From sequence record PQ462667.1: a stretch of 64,000 nucleotides of DNA; one strand, given 5' to 3'. Of this stretch, positions 1,748-12,361 are shown piece by piece (the first letter of the stretch is position 1; each line of letters begins with the position of its first letter). A program made the translations under genes and the position numbers. The notes beneath the pieces were generated by a model. The model did no database searches. It was not told where the DNA came from and worked only from the letters and a program-made list of their open reading frames with translations. Source of the DNA: Escherichia phage HMD-P3.

Positions 1748-2317
1748 TTAGAAATTTAGCTTCATAGCAAGAAAATTTTTCAAGTTTTCGGTAGACATCT
1801 CATCCACATCTACAGGAGAAACAAATCCATTTAATTGTCTAGCAAACTTTTCACCAGCAGGATCGTTGTCCCCAACAGCTACTAATTTGAAAGGTAATAA
1901 TTTCAGTTGCTTTAATAACGCTTTTCCTGGAGAAGAACCCAGCATTGCCAGGGCTGGATAACCAGCATTATGTAATGCAACTGCCTTAAATACAGATTCA
2001 GCAATCAATACTACTTTTTCATCTCCATTGAGAGTTTCTAGTCCCCATACACACTGTGTAGTGGAGTAGGTAAAATATTTAGCCTCAAAGGGGCACTTAC
2101 CATGCCCTTTTGGAGCAGAAGGATTATACGTCTGATAGCCCCGCAACATCCCAGAGAAGTCATACAATGGGACTGTTAGCCACCCTTCCGGGCTTAACCA
2201 GCAATGATATTTATCTGTATCAAATCCTCTAGATAAGAGGTGCTGTGTTAGCTCATCAACATTCATATTTGGTTCCTCTCTCAAATTTATAGATATATTA
2301 TACAGAGAATTTAGCAT
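1748..2317 (-). CDS. Toprim-domain protein (189 aa)
   Basis: C-terminal half VVLIAESVFKAVALHNAGYPALAMLGSSPG...KLVAVGDNDPAGEKFA matches the Toprim E...DxD pattern of DnaG-type primases; no zinc-binding or helicase-interaction region. Confidence 0.55.
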   Translation of the reverse strand: MLNSLYNISINLREEPNMNVDELTQHLLSRGFDTDKYHCWLSPEGWLTVPLYDFSGMLRGYQTYNPSAPKGHGKCPFEAKYFTYSTTQCVWGLETLNGDEKVVLIAESVFKAVALHNAGYPALAMLGSSPGKALLKQLKLLPFKLVAVGDNDPAGEKFARQLNGFVSPVDVDEMSTENLKNFLAMKLNF

Positions 2318-2340
2318 TCAAGCAATCAAATTTTTTAACT
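2283..2340 (-). promoter_or_regulatory. T5-type early promoter (minus strand)
   Basis: Reverse complement carries the recurring ...tttgattgcttgaatgctaaattctctgtataatatatctataaattt... architecture shared with about 10 other intergenic copies. Confidence 0.55.
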
Positions 2341-2441
2341 TTTTAGAGGAAAATCATAGGGCACTTAAGGGTAGCAGATAAGTGGTGAGGACCAAAATTT
2401 GTGACTCCACTAAAAATCCGGGGGCAATTTTTAAAGACCCC

Positions 2442-2470
2442 TTGACATTTTTGTTGGGGTAGTGTAAAGT
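2442..2470 (+). promoter_or_regulatory. sigma70-type promoter (TTGACA, 17-bp spacer, TG-extended TAAAGT)
   Basis: cTTGACAtttttgttggggtagTGTAAAGTat directly upstream of the plus-strand cassette; differs from the T5 early promoter family used elsewhere. Confidence 0.55.
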
Positions 2471-2532
2471 ATATGTTATGGATGAGTGATCAAAGAGACA
2501 CACATTTTCTATATACTAGGAGGTGTCAAAAA

Positions 2533-3525
2533 ATGACAGAAGAAGTAGCTAAGAGTCCTGAGACCGTCGCTAGCGTTGCAGCAGAACTGCACCGTCACGA
2601 GGAATCAGATAAGAAAAAGTGGGAGAAGGTCAGAGCCTACGAAGAAAAACATCGTGAACACGATGAAGATGATGAAGAAGATGACGATGATGAACATTGT
2701 CATAAATATGGAAAACATAAAATGCAAGAACCAGTAAACGTATTCACTAGTGGCTTCCCTGGCCTAATGGGCGGTTACCCAGCAAACGCAGGTGCTTTTG
2801 GTGGTGAAGGTATGGGTCTATTCGGAGCTATCCTAATCGGTGCTCTATTAACAGGCGGATTCGGTGGTTTCGGTGGATTCGGTGGACGTGGTGTAGTTGG
2901 TGATGGTAGCGCAGTTGATGCAGTGCTTCAGAATCAAGATACCGCTAGTATTCTAGCAGCTATTAACACTACTCGTACAGAAGCTAATCAGGGTACTGGA
3001 GCTGTTTTAAGCGCAGTTAATAATGGTTTTAGCCAGACATCCCAAAACCAGAGCCGTGATACTCAGTCTGTACTAACTACGATCTATGGTACGGGTGCTA
3101 ATCTGTCTAATCAAATCTGCCAGGAAACTCGCAACGTTATTCAGGGTCAGTTCGATCTTTCTCGCCAGATTGATCAATCTTTCGCAGCTAACCAGATAGC
3201 TCGTGCACAAGATAAGTTTGATTCTGCACAGATCGCTTTCCAGCAGACTTTACAAACTAATAACCAGTTTGCAGCTGTTCAGGCTCAGATGTGTGCTAAC
3301 CAGAACTCTCTGGAACGTCAGATCGCTGAATGTTGCTGTGAACTTCAGACTGCGATCGCTGGTGTAACTACTGCACGTATCCAGGACGAGTTAGACGCAT
3401 GTCGCCTACGTGAAGCAATCGCTGCGGGTAGTGGTGCTAACGGTCAGGTAATTAATCAAATCGCTTTAAGTCTTGGTGCTATCACTCAGACTCTGGCTGG
3501 TCTGCAGGCTAAACTGCCGGCTTAA
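2533..3525 (+). CDS. low-complexity protein: acidic/His-rich N-terminus, glycine-zipper hydrophobic segment, Q/N/A-rich C-terminal domain (about 330 aa from the RBS-supported start)
   Basis: Strong RBS (AGGAGG) 7 nt before ATG at 2533 (the track ORF begins at 2473 without an RBS); segment GLFGAILIGALLTGGFGGFGGFGGRG; CCC and further Cys in the C-terminal part. Confidence 0.55.
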   Translation: MTEEVAKSPETVASVAAELHRHEESDKKKWEKVRAYEEKHREHDEDDEEDDDDEHCHKYGKHKMQEPVNVFTSGFPGLMGGYPANAGAFGGEGMGLFGAILIGALLTGGFGGFGGFGGRGVVGDGSAVDAVLQNQDTASILAAINTTRTEANQGTGAVLSAVNNGFSQTSQNQSRDTQSVLTTIYGTGANLSNQICQETRNVIQGQFDLSRQIDQSFAANQIARAQDKFDSAQIAFQQTLQTNNQFAAVQAQMCANQNSLERQIAECCCELQTAIAGVTTARIQDELDACRLREAIAAGSGANGQVINQIALSLGAITQTLAGLQAKLPA

Positions 3526-3546
3526 TATTAAGGGGAGGAGCCCATT

Positions 3547-3963
3547 ATGAGTAAATATGGTTTTGTAAATAACGGACTTAATCAAAGTATGGGCTCCCAG
3601 CAGCCCATTCCAGGTCTGGATAACCCCTACTTACAACAGTTGCAACAGCGTTTAGCAGAAGCGCAACAGATGCAGCAACAACTCCAGCAAAATCCTAGAA
3701 GTGTGAGTCCTATACAAATGATGCAGCAAATGAGCGGGCAGTCGCAAATGCCTCAACAAATGCAGCAACAGATGCCGCAGCAGCAAGTTCAGCAACAAAC
3801 CCAACAACCGCAGGTTTCTGCGGAAGGACAGGCAGTACTAGCCCTTTTCGAAGACTTCGCAAAGACAGAGGATGGGAAGCAGCTTGTATCACTTATGGGT
3901 AAGTTTAATAGCTTCTGCCAAAGCCAAATTGCAAAAGCTCAAAATAGCGGTGATAACTCCTAA
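3547..3963 (+). CDS. glutamine-rich low-complexity protein (138 aa)
   Basis: RBS GGGGAGG upstream; about 35% Q in the central region (QQMQQQLQQ..., PQQMQQQMPQQQVQQQTQQPQ). Confidence 0.5.
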   Translation: MSKYGFVNNGLNQSMGSQQPIPGLDNPYLQQLQQRLAEAQQMQQQLQQNPRSVSPIQMMQQMSGQSQMPQQMQQQMPQQQVQQQTQQPQVSAEGQAVLALFEDFAKTEDGKQLVSLMGKFNSFCQSQIAKAQNSGDNS

Positions 3964-3972
3964 GGAGGAATT

Positions 3973-4167
3973 ATGTGTTGCAGAAAATCTGTTTCGTGCT
4001 GCCCAATGCCTGTAGCACGTTGTTGCTCTCCAGCAATGTTTACGCAAATACCGGCGTTCAATCCGTTTGCCTTTAAGCCTACTCTTATCCTGCCCCCTAG
4101 AGTAGATTTTCAGTCAAGATTGGCCTCCCGTATGGGTGGTTGCTGTACACCGAGAGTGTGGTTCTAA
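3973..4167 (+). CDS. small cysteine-pair-rich protein (64 aa)
   Basis: RBS AAGGAGG upstream; four CC dipeptides (MCC, SCC, RCC, GCC). Confidence 0.4.
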   Translation: MCCRKSVSCCPMPVARCCSPAMFTQIPAFNPFAFKPTLILPPRVDFQSRLASRMGGCCTPRVWF

Positions 4168-4180
4168 ACCAAAAAACAAA

Positions 4181-4215
4181 AGCCCCTGCCGAAAGGTAAG
4201 GGGCTTTTTCTTTTG
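4181..4215 (+). terminator. rho-independent terminator
   Basis: Stem agcccct/aggggct with 11-nt loop followed by tttttctttt. Confidence 0.65.
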
Positions 4216-4219
4216 CCTT

Positions 4220-4259
4220 AAATACAGAAAAGCCCGCGCTCTCAGAGGAAACGCGGGCT
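4220..4259 (-). terminator. rho-independent terminator for the SPFH gene
   Basis: Perfect 8-bp stem agcccgcg/cgcgggct; on the minus strand it is followed by a U-run (revcomp of acagaaa). Confidence 0.6.
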
Positions 4260-4283
4260 TGGTTAGAAGATTACGTGTAACTA

Positions 4284-5231
4284 TTACTTGTTACGCATAT
4301 CCATGATCATTTGACCATCGTAGCCAGTACCTACCACAGTCTGAGGCACACCACCTTGATACTTCTGAGCACGAATCATTTCAACTTCCAGTTGCTTCCA
4401 GCGAATCATCTCAGGAGTAATGGTACGTTGCAATGCGGCGTTAGCTTCAGCTTCTTTTTTAGCTGCGTACAGTTTAGCATCTGCGTCACGTTCATTAGCA
4501 ATAGCTTGGTTGTTGCGAGCTTCACGATCTGCTTCTGCTTGTTTAACTTTTTGCTGTGCTTCCTGTTCAACGCGGGCAAGTTCAGCTTTCGCAGCGTTAA
4601 CTTGCTCTTCACGAACTTTGGTATTCTGTACCTGTTCCATGATTACCGGTGGCAAAGTAATATCCTGAAGAAACACCTGCTTAACTGTGTAACCATATGG
4701 GCGTGCATACTCTTCAACTTCCTGTTGAATTGCAGTTTGCAATTGAGCCTGAATTTTAGCATCAAACAAATCTTGTGCTTTAGGTACAGACTTACCAAAC
4801 TCACGAATAGTAGACAGTAATTTTTCAGTTACATATTTGTCTAATGCTTGATCCTGGGTACCTGCATTAATACGGTTAATCGGTGCCTTAGAACCATCAA
4901 ACTGCAACATAACAGTCAGGTCAACAGTGGATTTAAACTTATCCTGACTAGGAACCTGAAGTTTATCTAATTTTAGAGCAATATCTTTAGTACTAAAAGT
5001 ATCGAAAGAAGCAAAAGGATTTACAATATGAAAGCCGGGTAATACTGGGCTAGGGTCAACTTTACCCAGGAAAGTCTGGGTTTTAACAGTACCGTCTTGG
5101 ACAACAGTATAAGAGTTAAGAGCCAGAACTAAACCTACCAAACCAACTGCAGCACCAATACCCCAACGTTTGATATTACGCATTAATTTTTGCTCATAAG
5201 TCAGTTCTTTAGTGTTTTTAGTAGCAAACAT
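4284..5231 (-). CDS. SPFH/band-7 (prohibitin/HflK/C-like) membrane protein
   Basis: N-terminal TM helix (WGIGAAVGLVGLVLAL), central SPFH-like region, C-terminal charged coiled coil (EQVNAAKAELARVEQEAQQKVKQAEADREARN...). Confidence 0.65.
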   Translation of the reverse strand: MFATKNTKELTYEQKLMRNIKRWGIGAAVGLVGLVLALNSYTVVQDGTVKTQTFLGKVDPSPVLPGFHIVNPFASFDTFSTKDIALKLDKLQVPSQDKFKSTVDLTVMLQFDGSKAPINRINAGTQDQALDKYVTEKLLSTIREFGKSVPKAQDLFDAKIQAQLQTAIQQEVEEYARPYGYTVKQVFLQDITLPPVIMEQVQNTKVREEQVNAAKAELARVEQEAQQKVKQAEADREARNNQAIANERDADAKLYAAKKEAEANAALQRTITPEMIRWKQLEVEMIRAQKYQGGVPQTVVGTGYDGQMIMDMRNK

Positions 5232-5265
5232 ATATTTCCTTTGTTTTAGTTACAGTTAATAAAAT

Positions 5266-5340
5266 TGGCCGAGGTGACAGGATTCGAACCTGCATAAAGG
5301 AATTTAGAAGACTCCTGCCTCTCCCTTAGACTACACCTCG
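5266..5340 (-). tRNA. tRNA-Arg (anticodon TCT)
   Basis: Sense CGAGGTG...GGAGT-CTTCTAA-ATTCC...GCAGGTTCGAATCCTGT-CACCTCG-G-CCA; anticodon loop CUUCUAA. Confidence 0.8.
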
Positions 5341-5832
5341 TTTAAGTATTTTTAAGAACTCTCGTAAAAACTCTTAAAAATACAGACGATACCGGGAGAG
5401 TCATAAGTCTCACTCATTAAGTATTTCAAGACAAAATACGGTAACGTCTACTATTTTCCAGTTTAAGTCAGGGTGACTTAGTGGTTATGTCCTGCGGTAT
5501 ATTGAGGACTCGGTTAGGCTCGGGGTCATGACTTCCCGCCTTTTGCTGCTACTCAACAGGAGTTATCGCGAATTACCTGTGCTATTGTGCACCATTAGTG
5601 ACATCTCTCATGCCAGCATTTCCCACTTTGTGGATAGCTTGAAAAACTACTCCGATATGGAGAAAGAACTTCACTATCCTAGAATACCTTCTAAAGTTCT
5701 TCTTTAGCCTGGACATAGTTAAATCGTAATAAAACTATTCAGCAGACTGGTTGGTTAGTCTGGAACCAACTACCGCGTGGTTTAGGCAGTGCGCAACTAA
5801 CCTCGGAAGCTTTTACTTTAAAAGCATCAGTT

Positions 5833-5914
5833 ATCCAGTTCTTACCGACCATAGGATTCGAACCTACATCTTCCACCAGTTACGGCTTGATAATACCAAT
5901 TATACTAGGACGGC
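5833..5914 (-). tRNA. tRNA-like element (perfect T-arm, imperfect acceptor, anticodon arm not resolved)
   Basis: Sense contains GTAGGTTCGAATCCTAT and acceptor-like GCCGTCC/GGTCGGT with one mismatch; no clean cloverleaf by eye. Could be a divergent or degenerate tRNA. Confidence 0.4.
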
Positions 5915-6129
5915 AGTGTTACTACATAAGTGATTTCCACACCCCACTATTTATAAATTAGAGAAGAGTTTAGGGGAGAGGTTTCAGACGCCTCATTTTA
6001 CACGTTCTAGCCACTAACCGGGATTGCCGCCCCCTGTGTACTAGTTTTACAACTAACCCACCGACTCTATTCAATGCGCTTCGGTTGGGATTATGCATTC
6101 AGCGTAATCGGCTCGCTGTTCCCTAATTT

Positions 6130-6178
6130 ATGAATATATTATACAGAATTTAAAGGCATTTAGCAAATAAATTTTTAA
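6130..6178 (-). promoter_or_regulatory. T5-type early promoter (minus strand) upstream of the tRNA-containing transcription unit
   Basis: Reverse complement aaaatttatttgctaaatgcctttaaattctgtataatatattcataaatt closely resembles T5 PN25 (-35 TTGCTa, -10 TATAAT, A/T-rich upstream). Confidence 0.6.
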
Positions 6179-6618
6179 TTAAATTCGCCAGCAATCTGAG
6201 CAGCAGTACCACCATCATAACGCCCAGGAAATTCTTCCTTAATCGCTTTCATCAGCATACCTTTTGTAATTCCAGGGTTTAGCTTAACTAATTCTGCAAA
6301 GTATTTACGAATCTCAGTATCAGATAACTGAGGAGGCAGATACTCCTGCAACCACTTATTTAGAATGTATTCATACTGAGCAGACTGCAAGCTATAGCTA
6401 TCAAGATCTTGACCATGAAGTTTAGCTTTCATCTGGTTAATGCTTTTTAGTTGAGCTTTGAGATAAGACACAAATTGTTCAGAAGTGATGAAATCTTTAT
6501 CAATACGCTGAAGATCCCCGATTATGGTCTGATAACTTTTAGCGACTTCTTTATCAGAACCATTAAACTTAGAATCCTGCAAAGCTCTACGCAAAACATC
6601 TAAAATATTCTCTTCCAT
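6175..6618 (-). CDS. GatB/YqeY-domain protein
   Basis: C-terminal YLPPQLSDTEIRKYFAELVKLNPGITKGMLMKAIKEEFPGRYDGGTAAQIAGEF matches the GatB/YqeY pattern. Confidence 0.6.
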   Translation of the reverse strand: MEENILDVLRRALQDSKFNGSDKEVAKSYQTIIGDLQRIDKDFITSEQFVSYLKAQLKSINQMKAKLHGQDLDSYSLQSAQYEYILNKWLQEYLPPQLSDTEIRKYFAELVKLNPGITKGMLMKAIKEEFPGRYDGGTAAQIAGEFN

Positions 6619-6788
6619 TATTTCATTCCTAGCGCTTGGTTAAAAGATTGTTCTGTCATAACTGCTGAGACTTTGGCGAAATCAAACTTTTTAGGGTTCG
6701 TAGTGATTTCAGCAACGTTAGAAGTTTTAACAGTTTTCGTAGTACGAATACCGCGAGTGTTAACACCAATAATTACAACTGATTTCAT
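6618..6788 (-). CDS. possible small ORF (56 aa), translationally coupled to the GatB/YqeY gene
   Basis: ATG preceded by GAGAGG; stop overlaps the downstream start (ATGAAATAATG); below the 60-aa track cutoff. Confidence 0.3.
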   Translation of the reverse strand: MKSVVIIGVNTRGIRTTKTVKTSNVAEITTNPKKFDFAKVSAVMTEQSFNQALGMK

Positions 6789-6807
6789 ACTTCGCTTCCT
6801 CTCATTA

Positions 6808-6862
6808 ATTTATGGAAGTATTATACGGAAATTTAAGTAGTTAAGCAAGTAAATTTTTAAGT
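6808..6862 (-). promoter_or_regulatory. T5-type early promoter (minus strand)
   Basis: Reverse complement cttaaaaatttacttgcttaactacttaaatttccgtataatacttccataa. Confidence 0.55.
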
Positions 6863-7324
6863 TTTAGTGACAACAGGTTTATAGAATGTATGTCCCTTAA
6901 TTTTAGTTGTTTTCTTAAATTTCTTTGTCCAGTAAGGTTTATCTTTACCACTATGGAAGTATAGTGCTCCATGTGTAGGATCTTGTGGTAAATCAACGTA
7001 GTATATCACTCTAGCTAAATTCTTAGCGGTTTGCCAAGCCTCATCAGTTTTATCAACTTTTGGTCTCTTAGATACCCAAGAGAACTGGTTAGACTGATAT
7101 ACTACTTTACAGTAGGAATCTGGGAATTTACCGGAGTTTACACGGTTTTTAGTAACATGTGCAATCGCCGTCATTCCCTTTATGCCCTCACCACGACTTT
7201 CGAAATAGATATTTTTAGCAATGCAATCTATTTCTTTTGCATCGTGCGATGCCTGACTACTAAAGCTGAAGGTAAGGGCAGCTACTAAAAGCAAAGCTGC
7301 CTTCATTCTTTTTACTCCTGCCAA
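6857..7324 (-). CDS. secreted cell-wall hydrolase, SleB-like
   Basis: N-terminal signal peptide (MKAALLLVAALTFSFSSQA); core IAKNIYFESRGEGIKGMTAIAHVTKNRV...VVYQSNQFSW matches the SleB-type cell-wall hydrolase signature. Confidence 0.65.
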   Translation of the reverse strand: MAGVKRMKAALLLVAALTFSFSSQASHDAKEIDCIAKNIYFESRGEGIKGMTAIAHVTKNRVNSGKFPDSYCKVVYQSNQFSWVSKRPKVDKTDEAWQTAKNLARVIYYVDLPQDPTHGALYFHSGKDKPYWTKKFKKTTKIKGHTFYKPVVTKT

Positions 7325-7629
7325 TCATATTCAACACGATTGGGATTTTCTTTATACCCTAAGTCAAGCAAATCATTACGCATATTTTGCTTAGCTACTG
7401 GGTTCGAGGTTACTAGTACCACTTTCTTTGGTCTCTGCCCAAATTCTAATAGTAAACGAAGAATTTGATAACCTTCCATACCATCTACAGCCAAGTCATT
7501 ATCCATATAAACGAAATGGCCTGTGGTATCAGTTTTATTCAGAAACTCTACAGCGGCTTCTGGGGTTCGAATGATAATGTCCATTCCGTGAAGATTACGC
7601 ACATCATCAATCAAAATATGAAAAGTCAT
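7312..7629 (-). CDS. hypothetical protein, possibly receiver (REC)-like fold (105 aa)
   Basis: Acidic motifs in REC-like spacing (ILIDDVR, VYMDNDL, VLVTSNP); weak, by eye only. Confidence 0.35.
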   Translation of the reverse strand: MTFHILIDDVRNLHGMDIIIRTPEAAVEFLNKTDTTGHFVYMDNDLAVDGMEGYQILRLLLEFGQRPKKVVLVTSNPVAKQNMRNDLLDLGYKENPNRVEYDWQE

Positions 7630-7647
7630 AATAGCCTCGTTTCATCA

Positions 7648-7705
7648 ATTTAAAAATATATTATACATATAATTTAGTAGATTAGCAAATACATTTTTAA
7701 ATTGT
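7648..7705 (-). promoter_or_regulatory. T5-type early promoter (minus strand)
   Basis: Reverse complement aaaaatgtatttgctaatctactaaattatatgtataatatattttt. Confidence 0.55.
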
Positions 7706-8071
7706 GAAACTAGTAAACCGATAAACAGCCTAGAGGCGCCACAGGCCATACCTTATGAGCCATGTACCTTTGATCTAGGGTTTTAATCATCAACGAATAC
7801 TTTGCATCTTTTAGCTTTAGAAGTTTAGAAGTTTGAGTTCTTTAAACTTTTCAGCTTTCATACTTAAATGTTGATCTTTGAAGTTGTGTCGGTAATATCA
7901 ACGACGCTTTGTTTTTACGTGTCAGCTTAAAAGGCTGGTGTAATAAACATAATCTCCAATAGATTATACTTTATAGTATGGTCAGCGGTCCTATTTAACC
8001 TCGTATTTCAACCGCTGCTGCGAGGTAAGATGCTTGGGCTTTCGTCTACCGATTTACTAGCTTTTAAATTA

Positions 8072-8710
8072 TTACTCTACTTCAATGAAGGTAGAGGCGT
8101 TAGACTCGGACAGAACAAAGTCAACATTTGTTGCAAAGTCCTGATATTCCTCGTCATGCTGCTTAATCAGCTTTTCCAGTTCCAGCGGATCAATCAAGAA
8201 TGGAGTATTCTTGAGTTCCAGCAGGTTGAGCTGCATTTTAACTTCATCTTCGGAAGTTTTCTTATCGCGAGTAGCCATGCTATCCTGCAAACGCTCATAT
8301 TTAGCATCAAACTGTGCTTTCTGCGTATTAAACTTAACCGTAGCGGCATGGAACTGCTTACGCATGTTAGCAAGCAGTTGAGCTTTAAGTTCCATAGAAC
8401 GCTTAGCTTCAATTGCTTCCGCAACAGTCATCTTACGAGAGCCAATCTCAACGATTGTTTCTGCATTGCTCTTAATCAGAGCAGATTTGATACTATCACG
8501 CTTAGACATCATATCCAGCAGAGACTGGAAATCAGTCTTAATACGAGTAGACAGATCGGCTACTTCGATTGCAGCGCCAACTACAACCTGGTTTTTATCC
8601 TTACCTTCACCAACAGCGATCAGAAGCTGCTGTTCAGTAGCTTTACGGATTTTAGCTTCCAGAGATTTGATAGTTGCCAGAGCACGAGTTTTAGAAATAC
8701 GAGTAGTCAT
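8072..8710 (-). CDS. hypothetical protein (212 aa)
   Basis: ORF with RBS; overlapping plus-strand ORFs are shadow frames; followed by a roughly 440-bp non-coding tail. Confidence 0.55.
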   Translation of the reverse strand: MTTRISKTRALATIKSLEAKIRKATEQQLLIAVGEGKDKNQVVVGAAIEVADLSTRIKTDFQSLLDMMSKRDSIKSALIKSNAETIVEIGSRKMTVAEAIEAKRSMELKAQLLANMRKQFHAATVKFNTQKAQFDAKYERLQDSMATRDKKTSEDEVKMQLNLLELKNTPFLIDPLELEKLIKQHDEEYQDFATNVDFVLSESNASTFIEVE

Positions 8711-8763
8711 TATTTGCTTCCTTATATGAAGTTTGAGATTTGAATTTGTTTGAATTTGGTCTA

Positions 8764-8946
8764 TTACAGACCAATTGCCAGCAGAGTGCGCAGAACAGTA
8801 TCGTTACTGTTATCAATTTTAGGATTAGCACGATTTAGTAGATTAAAGATTTTCTGGATACCTGATTGACGTTCAGCCATACGACGGATACCCAGATTAC
8901 GAGTAGCTTTCTTACCATTTTTACGAACATTTTTAGATACTGGCAT
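8764..8946 (-). CDS. small basic protein (60 aa)
   Basis: Lys/Arg-rich N-terminus; T5-type promoter immediately upstream (8962-9018). Confidence 0.4.
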   Translation of the reverse strand: MPVSKNVRKNGKKATRNLGIRRMAERQSGIQKIFNLLNRANPKIDNSNDTVLRTLLAIGL

Positions 8947-9016
8947 ATTTGTTTTCCTTTTATTGTTTTCTCAAATTTATGAATATATTATACAGAATTT
9001 TGGAGCCGGAAGCAAA

Positions 9017-9718
9017 TCAAATTTTCATTTTTTCGATCATAGCTGCAACACAATAGCTCTCAACTAAGGCATCAAATGCAGGATCATGCTTAACCGGATA
9101 AATCCCATAACGAATAGTGTCCATCTTCTCCATTTTAGCTATTGCCCAGCTAATACCTTCGGTCTCTAGAGCTTTATAACTGTATCCAGCTTGCATCCAG
9201 AGATTACGAAGAGATCGAACATTGCCCAAATTCCAGAATTTCCACGGAACTACTTCTTCATTGGTTCCAGCATGGAACGTGTTTGCAGAGTAGATAGTCA
9301 TATCAAACTCTGGGCCATTGCCATAATACAAAGCATTTTCGCCTAGAGCCAACTCCATAATATTTTTAGCCATAGAGAAGGCAGCATAGTTTGAGCCAAG
9401 TTTATTAGTGCAATGATGTTTACCATTTTGGAAGGCAATCAGTTTTGGATTACGCTCGTTCATAGCTTCCATAATGTGGATAGCAGACGGGCTATTTTTA
9501 GCTTGATCCATCCAGAATGCTAGAGTAGATGCTGTAACTTTGGCACCAGAATTAAGTTGATCTTGCACATCCAAAGTAACAAATACTAGATCAGGGTCTT
9601 TATCAATCCCATGCATAGCTACAAAAGCGAAAGAAGGCATTGCGATATGAGTAGTACCACAATCTCCTGGAGTTCCTAGAGATTCAATATCTAGCATACC
9701 AAATGGTTTTACTTTCAT
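9017..9718 (-). CDS. putative DnaQ-like (DEDDh) 3'-5' exonuclease
   Basis: N-terminal Exo I-like GMLDIESLGT and C-terminal Exo III-like HDPAFDAL (H-x4-D-A); middle motif not clearly seen. Confidence 0.45.
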   Translation of the reverse strand: MKVKPFGMLDIESLGTPGDCGTTHIAMPSFAFVAMHGIDKDPDLVFVTLDVQDQLNSGAKVTASTLAFWMDQAKNSPSAIHIMEAMNERNPKLIAFQNGKHHCTNKLGSNYAAFSMAKNIMELALGENALYYGNGPEFDMTIYSANTFHAGTNEEVVPWKFWNLGNVRSLRNLWMQAGYSYKALETEGISWAIAKMEKMDTIRYGIYPVKHDPAFDALVESYCVAAMIEKMKI

Positions 9719-9746
9719 AAGTTATCCTTTATTGTGTAGAAAACTA

Positions 9747-9968
9747 TTAAAGAGCTGTCTCTTTAATAGACTCCCACTTCTTGGGGTCTTTAAAACCAGG
9801 GAGCATATCCTCACTGACATCCCAGTTCTCCTCCATATAGAGGTCATCTAAGTCTAACTCACCCACTGCTAAATCCATTACCTCATGACTAGAAAGTCGT
9901 GTATAATCCCTAGCGGACTTATGAGTGCTAGCACGGTTAAAATCATTCTTTGCTACAAAATTACGCAT
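9747..9968 (-). CDS. hypothetical protein (73 aa)
   Basis: ORF co-oriented in the operon; no motif. Confidence 0.4.
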   Translation of the reverse strand: MRNFVAKNDFNRASTHKSARDYTRLSSHEVMDLAVGELDLDDLYMEENWDVSEDMLPGFKDPKKWESIKETAL

Positions 9969-10009
9969 AGTTTCTCCGATTAAGAGGGGCTTTCGCCCCT
10001 ATTTATCTA

Positions 10010-10525
10010 TTACTTCGCTTTACGCTTGCGAGCTGGTTTAGCAGATTTACGAGCAGAATCACCCGTGAACTTAATGCCTACACCGTAACACAGAGCACGA
10101 ACATTATCTTTACTATACTCTACACCAAAGATATTTGGCTTAACAGAACCAAACTGTCCACGAGTATCACGCAATACATCTGCTGTTGGTTTACGCTTCT
10201 GGTTAACTGCCTTCTCATAGTCTTTCATAGACATACCATTACGAGAGAACAATTCAGCCCCAGCGTTGAAGCTCAGGGAAACTGGGACAGATTTGTGGCC
10301 GTAATTTTCTACATACATAACCATTTTGTAGGATTTACGGGTGGCATTTTTAGCTTTAGGCTTCTGACGAATCGGAGCCGGATTATTCAGTGCTTGCGCA
10401 GCCTGAGCATCGGTAGGATGCTTACGCAGGTGACGTTCCAGACGAGCTTTGCGATTAGCCTCAGTCTTCGGGAAAGTTTTAACTGCCGGAGCTGCTTGAG
10501 TTTTTGCGTTTTTCTGCTTAGCCAT
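10010..10525 (-). CDS. hypothetical basic protein (171 aa)
   Basis: Lys/Arg-rich termini; T5-type promoter upstream (about 10548-10606). Confidence 0.5.
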   Translation of the reverse strand: MAKQKNAKTQAAPAVKTFPKTEANRKARLERHLRKHPTDAQAAQALNNPAPIRQKPKAKNATRKSYKMVMYVENYGHKSVPVSLSFNAGAELFSRNGMSMKDYEKAVNQKRKPTADVLRDTRGQFGSVKPNIFGVEYSKDNVRALCYGVGIKFTGDSARKSAKPARKRKAK

Positions 10526-10608
10526 TATTTGTTTTCCTTTTTGTTTATCAATTTATGAAGTATATTATACGAGAATTTGAAGCGTTTAGCAAATGAATTT
10601 TTTAAAAA

Positions 10609-10887
10609 TTATCTACCAACCATCTTAGCTTGTTCGGCATCTGAGACATATTGATACGCCCCTTTATTATACGCTGGAGCAGTACACATTTTCTTACGCT
10701 CAATCTCTTCTTGAGCTTTTCTTTCGCGTTCAGCTAACTCTTCGTCCAGATAAACTAAACGTTGCTCTGGAGGAGGTGGAAGACGTGTTTCTGGCTCACC
10801 AATATTAGCCTTTCTTATTTGACGAGGTGATTGTGCACGTTTTCTCAATGGCTTAAATCCTAATGAATTTGAGTTATAAATCCGCAT
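10609..10887 (-). CDS. hypothetical protein (92 aa)
   Basis: ORF with T5-type promoter upstream (about 10900-10960). Confidence 0.45.
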   Translation of the reverse strand: MRIYNSNSLGFKPLRKRAQSPRQIRKANIGEPETRLPPPPEQRLVYLDEELAERERKAQEEIERKKMCTAPAYNKGAYQYVSDAEQAKMVGR

Positions 10888-10963
10888 AAAGCCCTCCTCA
10901 CTTTCAATATGAATATTATACTAAATTAGAGGGCTTTAAGCAAGTGAATTTTTAATTTATTTA

Positions 10964-11440
10964 TTACATCTCAGCCATTTCAGCTTCAGTAATAACTGTA
11001 TTACACAATGCATCTACAGCTTCATTACCACTAATACCAGAATGTCCTTTGACCTTAATAAAGGTAGGGTTAGTGTTATGAAAGTTGATATACTGCTGTG
11101 TTAATTTAAATGCTTCCTGCCAAAGTTCTAGATTAAGAGGAACTTCACCATCTGCTTTCTTCCATCCTTTCCTTTGCCAAGAAAACATCCAACTTTCCAT
11201 GCCATTTTTGCAATAAGCAGAGTCAGTATAGATAGCAATTGGTCTATTATCTTTTTTAACAGACCAACGTAGAGCTTCTACAATAGCTGTGAGTTCCATC
11301 TCATTATTTGTAGTTTTAGGATTATAACCAGATTTAGAACCTAAACGATCGTCGTTATCATCATAGACAATAAAACCCCAAGCACCTGGACCTGGATTAG
11401 ACTTACAAGCACCATCTGTGTAAATGTGGAAAACGCTCAC
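10964..11440 (-). CDS. rnhA: ribonuclease HI
   Basis: N-terminal IYTDGACKSNPGPGAWG and downstream TNNEMELTAI...IYTDSAY...GHSGISGNEAVDAL match the RNase H fold motifs. Confidence 0.85.
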   Translation of the reverse strand: MSVFHIYTDGACKSNPGPGAWGFIVYDDNDDRLGSKSGYNPKTTNNEMELTAIVEALRWSVKKDNRPIAIYTDSAYCKNGMESWMFSWQRKGWKKADGEVPLNLELWQEAFKLTQQYINFHNTNPTFIKVKGHSGISGNEAVDALCNTVITEAEMAEM

Positions 11441-11985
11441 TTATTAAGTTCCTCTACTGGTGGGTAATAGTTGGTATAGAAATCTTCTATAACTGCTTCG
11501 CTACCATGAAGTGTTTTTCTTAGTTCATTAGCCTTTATGACCGCACTTTCTAGATCTAAGTAGTCAAAAACACCCCCGTAAATATTTTTACCATTATTAT
11601 CAATTACCTGTACTTGCCATTTCTGTAGTTGTTTGTTCCAGTGTACACCTAGATATCCAGATTTACTCGATGCGGTACAATTTCTATTATTAGACTGGCT
11701 TGTAGCTTCTCTTAGATTTATCCACCTATTATCTGACCTAATTCTATTTTTGTGGTCTATTAAATCAGGTATTGATCCTGTCATGTATAGAAAGGCTAAC
11801 CTATGTGCTAAATAATCTATTTTATCTATCTTAATAGTTATATAGCCATCTTTTCTTAGGTATCCAGCGGGCGAACCTGCTTTTCCTCCCCTACCACGAC
11901 TCACCTTATTAGTAAATATACCAGTATCTGGATCATAGATTAGTATTTCTTTTAATCTTTCTTGGCTAGGTAGCTTTTTACTCAT
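11437..11985 (-). CDS. HNH homing endonuclease with AP2-type DNA-binding domain
   Basis: HNH motif DHKNRIRSDNRWINLREATSQSNNRN; C-terminal GYLGVHWNKQLQKWQVQV...GGVFDYLDLESAVIKANE resembles an AP2 domain; free-standing between rnhA and the next gene. Confidence 0.75.
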   Translation of the reverse strand: MSKKLPSQERLKEILIYDPDTGIFTNKVSRGRGGKAGSPAGYLRKDGYITIKIDKIDYLAHRLAFLYMTGSIPDLIDHKNRIRSDNRWINLREATSQSNNRNCTASSKSGYLGVHWNKQLQKWQVQVIDNNGKNIYGGVFDYLDLESAVIKANELRKTLHGSEAVIEDFYTNYYPPVEELNK

Positions 11986-12361
11986 CTAACCATCCTATGT
12001 CTATACTAAGTAGTGCTTTTATTCCTGTAATACCTGTACCATAAGTATTATATCGAATAGCACTTCTGCTCTTTACTTCAAGTATATTTTCATGCTCTGT
12101 ATTTTCTAGAATTTCTGTAGATATACCTAAATATCCTAATTGATCTTCCTCGTCCCAACCCATATCTTCTAGAAGATTTAGACGTAACTCTACCTTCTCA
12201 TCTCCATTTCCTACAGAGTAGTGGTCTTCTAAAGTCCTGAATTTAGAAGTGATAGAATCTAGTATTAATAATACCTGTTCCTTAGTAATAGTTTCTTTAT
12301 CACCCTGTAAGTAATTGGAGTAATTCAGAAGGGCTTGTTCTAATTCAATTTCTTTACTCAT
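11978..12361 (-). CDS. hypothetical acidic protein (127 aa)
   Basis: ORF overlapping the HNH gene start by 8 nt; promoter with a palindrome upstream. Confidence 0.5.
   Translation of the reverse strand: MSKEIELEQALLNYSNYLQGDKETITKEQVLLILDSITSKFRTLEDHYSVGNGDEKVELRLNLLEDMGWDEEDQLGYLGISTEILENTEHENILEVKSRSAIRYNTYGTGITGIKALLSIDIGWLDE

Follow-up and report, generated by a model that had tools for sequence, protein, structure and literature searches.

A 64,000-nucleotide (nt) stretch of DNA from Escherichia phage HMD-P3 (record PQ462667.1; the window) encodes, at positions 6175..6618, a 147-amino-acid (aa) protein with an ATG start that is a complete, stand-alone member of the YqeY family, homologous over its entire length and not in a C-terminal domain alone. 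All window features given with coordinates below lie on the minus strand. YqeY proteins are widespread, and a YqeY structure has been available since 2003. The gene is the ortholog of T5.081, and the source phage is placed by sequence comparison among the T5-like phages (Demerecviridae, Markadamsvirinae); many T5-like phages, including Salmonella phages L6jm, Th1 and Spc35, are 98.4–99.0% identical over 2.5 kilobases (kb) around the gene. With slightly more confidence than doubt, the likeliest function of the protein can be given as that of a trans-acting binder of transfer RNA (tRNA) or structured RNA that would serve the phage RNA pool by assisting or recruiting tRNA enzymes.

An earlier note, based on the letters of this DNA alone, had read the C-terminal half of this open reading frame (ORF) as a GatB/YqeY domain. 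The ORF exists, the peptide quoted in that note corresponds to residues 93–146, and a YqeY-family domain does lie in the C-terminal half: Pfam YqeY (PF09424) matches the single sequence at aa 90–142 only (E=1.7e-5, 25.4 bits), which falls slightly short of the gathering score (27). The specific assignment to GatB_Yqey (PF02637) failed, with no match at E≤1; EbsA, the only Pfam match besides YqeY at that threshold, is at chance level. Several close orthologs carry a precomputed PF09424 match, and PHROG 1460 covers the full length of the protein (E=3e-47).

Evidence that the homology extends beyond the C-terminal half came from a profile of 31 T5-like orthologs. When this profile was compared with the PDB, the best match was Bacillus subtilis YqeY (1NG6, E=0.0056), with profile positions 9–138 collinear with residues 7–141 of the 1NG6 chain. 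The same profile yielded 769 matches at E≤1e-3 among 1.84 billion representative proteins, and nearly all of the 150 matches listed are 130–155 aa long and aligned over most of their length. Pfam YqeY was matched by 53 of 60 aligned sequences (the query and the top distant matches), at best with E=3.5e-27. The family signature residues P95, Q97, G120, M123, K127, Y134, D135, G136 and A139, each at least 90% conserved over 60 distant homologs, are all present. An AlphaFold model of the protein (pLDDT 87.7) has eight helices, and Foldseek returned high scores to YqeY structures only (8XJE, 1NG6, 8XJG). The predicted model has the two-domain, all-alpha fold of ~145 aa expected of the family, with a helical bundle in the N-terminal domain (aa 1–94; 6337..6618), where the motif TIIGDLQRIDKD is conserved at aa 31–42, followed by the YqeY tail domain (aa 95–147; 6178..6336).

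The gene is functional and under purifying selection. Comparison with Spc35 or HMD-P4 reveals no nonsynonymous changes at a synonymous divergence (dS) of 0.06–0.08, and the ratio of nonsynonymous to synonymous divergence (dN/dS) is 0.05–0.13 within allele classes for both domains. The two domains differ in their overall conservation: among the 31 orthologs, mean pairwise identity is 50% (minimum 29%) for the N-terminal domain and 77% for the C-terminal domain. At the nucleotide level, identity to T5 is 46–55% only across 6301–6600, the part coding for the N-terminal domain, and 88–99% in the flanks. The ortholog alignment can be read as containing at least four discrete classes of N-terminal domain with 30–50% identity, carried by phages whose polymerases are more than 94% identical. 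Recombination within the gene is apparent in the YqeY protein of DT57C, a hybrid that joins the N-terminal domain of one class to the C-terminal domain of the T5 class. Ongoing positive selection on the N-terminal domain could not be shown: dN/dS is low within classes, and synonymous sites are saturated between them. The pattern is therefore read as one of old alleles that appear to have been exchanged.

Immediately upstream of the YqeY gene lies a gene for a small basic protein of 56 aa (6618..6788; isoelectric point (pI) 10.4), the ortholog of T5.082, which matches Pfam DUF7616 with E=4.7e-33. The earlier note had described this ORF as coupled to the YqeY gene, and the arrangement of the junction agrees. 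The A at 6618 is at once the last base of the DUF7616 stop codon, TAA (6620–6618), and the first base of the YqeY ATG, which gives TAATG at 6620–6616, and an AGGA sequence (6630–6627) lies 8 nt upstream of the YqeY start. From this layout, the two genes are predicted to be translationally coupled. The partnership is also reflected in the distribution of the genes. Searches with tblastn found the YqeY protein in 457 phage records, counting copies that are 100% identical, and DUF7616 in 438 records from the same set of phages. For comparison, a T5-type DNA polymerase at least 90% identical was found in 441 records. Counts by host name are nearly the same for YqeY and the polymerase (Salmonella, 268 and 270; Escherichia, 130 and 132). 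Hence the DUF7616-YqeY pair is essentially universal in T5-like phages of E. coli and Salmonella. Most Vibrio and Klebsiella records with a T5-type polymerase have no YqeY match.

The position of the gene relative to phage tRNAs differs in part from the earlier note, which had placed it inside a tRNA cluster and in the same transcription unit. The gene does lie beside tRNAs, at their upstream (5′) edge: all tRNAs of the window are downstream on the same strand, and neither ARAGORN nor Rfam identified a tRNA upstream of the gene in the window. The nearest true tRNA, 835 nt downstream, is tRNA-Arg (UCU) at 5266..5340 (ARAGORN; Rfam, 51.2 bits), and three further tRNAs were identified at 974–1726 by both programs. 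Between the YqeY gene and tRNA-Arg is a non-coding stretch of ~790 nt (5341..6131), identified from the T5 and DT57C annotations as a homolog of RNAX, a stable RNA in T5. The DUF7616-YqeY pair is framed by two nearly identical sigma-70-type promoters. The first, read from the sequence upstream of the pair (6820..6848; TTGCTT, 17-nt spacer, TATAAT), sits where the T5 record annotates P-D/E 33, between T5.083 and T5.082. The second, for RNAX and tRNA-Arg (6138..6166; TTGCTA, 17-nt spacer, TATAAT; 10/12 matches in a scan), begins 9 nt past the YqeY stop codon, where T5 has P16-17. No terminator-like site was found between the YqeY gene and tRNA-Arg; therefore, read-through from YqeY into RNAX and tRNA-Arg is possible. 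Thus, a shared transcript with tRNA-Arg stands as a possibility, but the pair and RNAX/tRNA-Arg each have a promoter of their own. The main tRNA array is set apart by a divergent cassette and a bidirectional terminator, and the claim of a single transcription unit is only partly right.

Evidence for a link between phage YqeY proteins and tRNA came from the contexts of YqeY-family genes in other phages. Many large lytic phages that carry tRNAs have such genes. Thirteen non-T5 phage contexts were sampled, using tblastn on annotated phages and a search for encoding contigs; L025, which is bacterial with the gene beside ftsZ, and L019, of unclear origin, were left out, and searches of IMG/VR for related loci with two single distant proteins (P0055 and P0061) gave no match. 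A link to tRNA genes or to RNA enzymes was found in 8 of the 13 contexts, a small sample of lineages that are not fully independent. The YqeY gene is less than 1 kb from tRNA genes in four (Chazly21, RSP15, L020 and L023). It lies within a tRNA array in Vibrio phage Chazly21; in the metagenomic contig L020 it precedes tRNA-Glu by 10 nt and has four other tRNAs close by. The metagenomic contig L023 (GCA_013565635.1) has YqeY as the only protein gene in an array of 20 tRNAs (L023:3068-6636), of which 16 lie upstream, with 32 nt between the end of the last one and the YqeY start codon, and four downstream. In Ralstonia phage RSP15 (L009:3995-6985), YqeY is found 670 nt after a cluster of seven tRNAs and is followed by genes for an HD phosphohydrolase, an AAA_33 kinase resembling polynucleotide kinase (PNK) and an Rnl1-like RNA ligase; this stretch looks like a tRNA-repair cassette headed by YqeY. 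The binomial probability of finding 4 of 13 contexts linked to tRNA genes is ~0.03, a rough hand estimate that assumes that ~10% of a large phage genome is less than 1 kb from a tRNA gene and that involves lineages not fully independent of one another.

Genes for RNA-acting enzymes are adjacent to the YqeY gene, or a few genes away, in 5 of the 13 contexts, with RSP15 counted in both groups. Burkholderia phage BcepSauron (L006:3761-5468) has a full-length YqeY gene 10 nt downstream of its gene for the RNA ligase RtcB (E=1.8e-119); NUDIX and phosphoesterase genes are found near this region. Two metagenomic contigs (L018:4033-5447 and L021:2496-4051) have a gene for a radical-SAM RNA methyltransferase homolog resembling RlmN/Cfr directly upstream of YqeY, in both cases with E ~3e-29, below equivalog cut-offs. 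In Escherichia phage PaulScherrer, the gene directly upstream of YqeY (L004:4413-4985) encodes bas60_0080, a 190-aa protein labelled "histidyl tRNA synthetase" in PHROG. This protein has no sequence match in Pfam, NCBIfam or the PDB; the PHROG label and a motif 2-like TPCYRTEE recognized by eye weakly suggest that it might be a class II or minimal aminoacyl-tRNA synthetase (aaRS)-like enzyme. NCBIfam likewise has no model matching the YqeY, DUF7616 or cREC proteins of the T5-like locus.

The YqeY-like tail of GatB and GatE has been implicated in recognition of the tRNA D-loop (PMC2811023), the YqeY domain of Deinococcus radiodurans glutaminyl-tRNA synthetase (GlnRS) increases affinity for tRNA-Gln (PMC1865053), and yqeY is missing from E. 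coli (PMC13374519). Taken together, these observations make a free-standing tRNA/RNA-binding module the best-supported reading of the phage protein. The helical and tail domains are the non-catalytic module by which GatB, GatE and Deinococcus GlnRS, in cis, grip tRNA at its D-loop/elbow, and the phage would supply it as a separate polypeptide together with DUF7616. The pair would be made from its sigma-70-type promoter, a type that suggests the early class. YqeY would be expressed in E. coli and Salmonella, hosts that themselves lack a YqeY. There it would serve a phage RNA pool of ~25–30 tRNAs and stable RNAs such as RNAX, assisting or recruiting enzymes of tRNA processing, charging, modification or repair, with no amidotransferase activity of its own. 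Both the binding of tRNA or other RNA and the activity downstream of it are what we infer for the phage protein. The earlier note had proposed a role in tRNA charging, quality control or protection from nucleases. The contexts support a tRNA-related accessory role as the best reading, and they do not separate the three options.

Several observations weigh against such a role. A Klebsiella T5-like phage (L026) retains the hydrolase gene and 21 tRNAs in a syntenic region of 16 kb from which YqeY, DUF7616 and cREC are all missing; phage tRNAs can therefore function without YqeY. The DUF7616-YqeY pair is transcribed from its own promoter, the divergent cassette and the terminator stand between the pair and the main tRNA array, and in 5 of the 13 other contexts (phiN3, PA5oct, 2.275.O, phi-ST2 and L024) YqeY has no tRNA or RNA-enzyme neighbour. 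The protein itself is mildly acidic (pI 5.5), and its sequence has no counterpart of the Lys-rich KxGKxK motif described for GatB tails (PMC2811023). The Deinococcus YqeY domain worked only in cis, and not in trans (PMC1865053), and in Pichia complex I a member of the YqeY superfamily serves purely as a bridge that binds proteins (PMC12487887). For bacterial YqeY of the stand-alone kind, the function is itself unknown (PMC13374519, PMC2811023), and the literature yielded no functional study of phage YqeY or T5.081 that would provide direct evidence of RNA binding.

The presence of a coupled small basic protein suggests a different reading, in which YqeY would tune ribosomes or initiation toward phage mRNAs with DUF7616 as its partner. 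This is improbable, even though bacterial yqeY and rpsU, which encodes bS21, are often in one operon and co-regulated (PMC13374519, PMC12054373), and a small ORF likewise accompanies YqeY genes of other phages, 4 nt upstream of the gene in RSP15 and overlapping its start in Vibrio phage 2.275.O. Partnership with rpsU is typical but not universal for YqeY, and in the T5-like phages the coupled ORF is DUF7616 instead. DUF7616 was considered as a phage counterpart of bS21 and rejected: the Ribosomal_S21 profile has no match to it at E≤1, and its predicted beta-beta-alpha-beta-alpha fold is beta-rich and has no PDB match with E<0.5, bS21 included. Moreover, the small ORFs beside other phage YqeY genes are unrelated to DUF7616 and acidic, and the neighbouring ORFs scanned at the T5-like locus include no ribosomal or translation-factor genes. 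The variability of the N-terminal domain has led to another proposal, that YqeY acts as a protein-binding adaptor or counter-defence protein whose N-terminal domain targets a variable host or defence protein, its proximity to tRNA genes reflecting only the character of an accessory region. The deep divergence of the allele classes in phages with nearly identical polymerases, the confinement of change to ~300 nt between conserved flanks, the reshuffling of alleles by recombination within the gene, and the dispensability of the gene in the Klebsiella phage all fit this proposal. Nevertheless, there seems little chance that it is correct. Purifying selection is strong within classes in both domains, with saturation of synonymous sites between classes, and chance does not readily explain why unrelated phages repeatedly have YqeY linked to tRNA arrays and to four kinds of RNA-acting enzymes.

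A further reading, that the protein is a true, GatB-like subunit of a tRNA-dependent amidotransferase, is barely credible. It derives from the label of PHROG 1460 and from names propagated from that label, and from nothing else. At 147 aa, the protein consists of the non-catalytic helical and tail module only, and it has no match to the GatB catalytic domain (GatB_N), as it has none to PF02637. Homologs of GatA and GatC are absent from the neighbouring ORFs scanned, which cover part of the window. E. coli and Salmonella form Gln-tRNA and Asn-tRNA directly via GlnRS and asparaginyl-tRNA synthetase (AsnRS), which also counts against an amidotransferase. A real amidotransferase is thus rejected on domain content, and the name "tRNA amidotransferase" is an over-annotation, since both the catalytic domain and the Lys-rich tail motif are missing.

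A more specific form of the tRNA-binding reading can be proposed, with considerable doubt. It is established that the tRNA set of T5-like phages neutralises defences that cleave tRNAs, PARIS among them. Phage YqeY proteins might be tRNA-docking adaptors working in trans, which would deliver tRNAs to enzymes or shield them. The enzymes concerned would be RtcB, PNK with Rnl1, RlmN-like and aaRS-like proteins, and the outcome repair, modification or charging. Under the same doubtful proposal, the DUF7616-YqeY pair would answer tRNA-cleaving defences, possibly alongside cREC or while bound to RNAX, and the N-terminal alleles would fit host or defence partners.

Among known systems, the phage protein resembles the bacterial stand-alone YqeY proteins (B. 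subtilis 1NG6, Campylobacter jejuni 8XJE and Vibrio parahaemolyticus 8XJG; PF09424). They have the same size, ~145 aa, and share the C-terminal signature (Y/F)LPxQ(L/M)(S/T) ... G..M..K ... YDG..A, but identity is only 14–20%. The phage gene differs further in being carried by a virulent phage that infects hosts without yqeY, in having DUF7616 upstream in place of rpsU, and in the allelic nature of its N-terminal domain. The C-terminal helical and tail domains of GatB and GatE belong to the same superfamily, and there the module binds the D-loop region of tRNA (PMC2811023). In contrast to GatB and GatE, phage YqeY has neither the catalytic cradle domain nor the KxGKxK insertion nor a PF02637 match, has no GatA/GatC partner among the neighbouring ORFs scanned, and would act in trans. 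The enhancement of tRNA affinity by the YqeY domain of Deinococcus GlnRS (PMC1865053) parallels the occurrence of phage YqeY beside RtcB, RlmN-like and aaRS-like genes, with the difference that the Deinococcus domain is fused to its enzyme and phage YqeY is a separate polypeptide. The Aim41-type subunit of Pichia pastoris complex I, a YqeY-superfamily protein that bridges other proteins (PMC12487887), shows that RNA binding is not the only use of the fold.

YqeY proteins of other large lytic phages with tRNAs (pf16 gp65, Chazly21 gp112, RSP15 ORF100, BcepSauron gp129 and PaulScherrer bas60_0079; PHROG 1460) are likewise stand-alone, at ~135–156 aa, and are often encoded next to tRNA genes or to RNA-repair or RNA-modifying enzymes (PMC5587285). 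Compared with these, the T5-like proteins have diverged further from bacterial YqeY, and their gene has a DUF7616 partner, a cREC neighbour and a position upstream of RNAX. Unlike the genes of some other phages, T5-like YqeY has no adjoining ligase, methyltransferase or aaRS-like gene.

The YqeY gene of these phages is already known as a feature: annotated proteins that are 100% identical are public, the family assignment is present in databases, and the link to tRNA has been voiced before. For phage pf16, in which the YqeY protein gp65 is encoded beside phage tRNAs, a role in tRNA charging was already speculated (PMC5587285). The present analysis assigns the full-length fold, discards the amidotransferase and exonuclease names, and describes the promoter layout and the allelic N-terminal domain. 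A further addition is the observation that YqeY genes of phages turn up repeatedly in linkage with tRNA arrays or with genes for RtcB, Rnl1/PNK, RlmN-like and aaRS-like proteins. T5-like phages carry YqeY into hosts that lack it, which makes T5 a tractable genetic system for studying stand-alone YqeY function.

The surrounding locus follows the curated T5 record, which lists, in the order of transcription, T5.084, T5.083 (SleB-type hydrolase), P-D/E 33, T5.082, T5.081, P16-17, RNAX (719 nt), tRNA-Arg, T5.080 (SPFH lipoprotein) and a bidirectional terminator; a divergent cassette of three genes then stands before the main tRNA array. In the window, the ortholog of T5.083 is a SleB-type cell-wall hydrolase gene (6857..7324; Pfam Hydrolase_2, E=2.4e-25). 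The ortholog of T5.084, two genes upstream of YqeY, encodes a cREC_REC protein (7312..7629; Pfam PF20274, E=3.8e-15). The order cREC, hydrolase, DUF7616, YqeY is identical in all seven T5-like loci examined, including that of a divergent metagenomic relative. The cREC_REC family is predicted to resolve 2′,3′-cyclic phosphate ends of RNA and occurs in RNA-repair contexts (PMC7824862, PMC9503650). It is the sole RNA-repair candidate among the ORFs of 1748–12361, which include no RNA ligase or kinase, and the T5-like locus is accordingly not part of a phage tRNA-repair cassette of the T4 Pnkp/Rnl1-like or RtcB-like type.

The RNAX homolog contains a weak tRNA-like element (5843–5914; Rfam tRNA, 33.7 bits), which other records call tRNA-Ser(ACT) or tRNA-Sec. 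This element is part of a core (5800–5950) that is conserved across 10 phages. An unusually stable fold for RNAX was considered and dropped, the folding z-score of −0.92 not being significant. Toward the 5′ end of RNAX (~5960–6110) is an optional element of 150–200 nt between the conserved flanks GAACAGCGAGCCGATTACGCTGA ... TTGAATAGAGTCGGTGGGTT; it is missing in T5, DT57C and Shivani and exists in several versions in other T5-like phages, with no co-variation between this element and the N-terminal allele of YqeY.

The name "recombination related exonuclease" also circulates in records of the YqeY gene and has no support; like "tRNA amidotransferase", it should become "YqeY family protein" in the databases. 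Upstream in the window, an ORF named "exonuclease" (9017–9718), the ortholog of T5.087, matches an Rv2179c-like 3′–5′ exoribonuclease domain (E=3.6e-8). A gene of this kind may be the origin of the exonuclease label that many records give to the YqeY gene.

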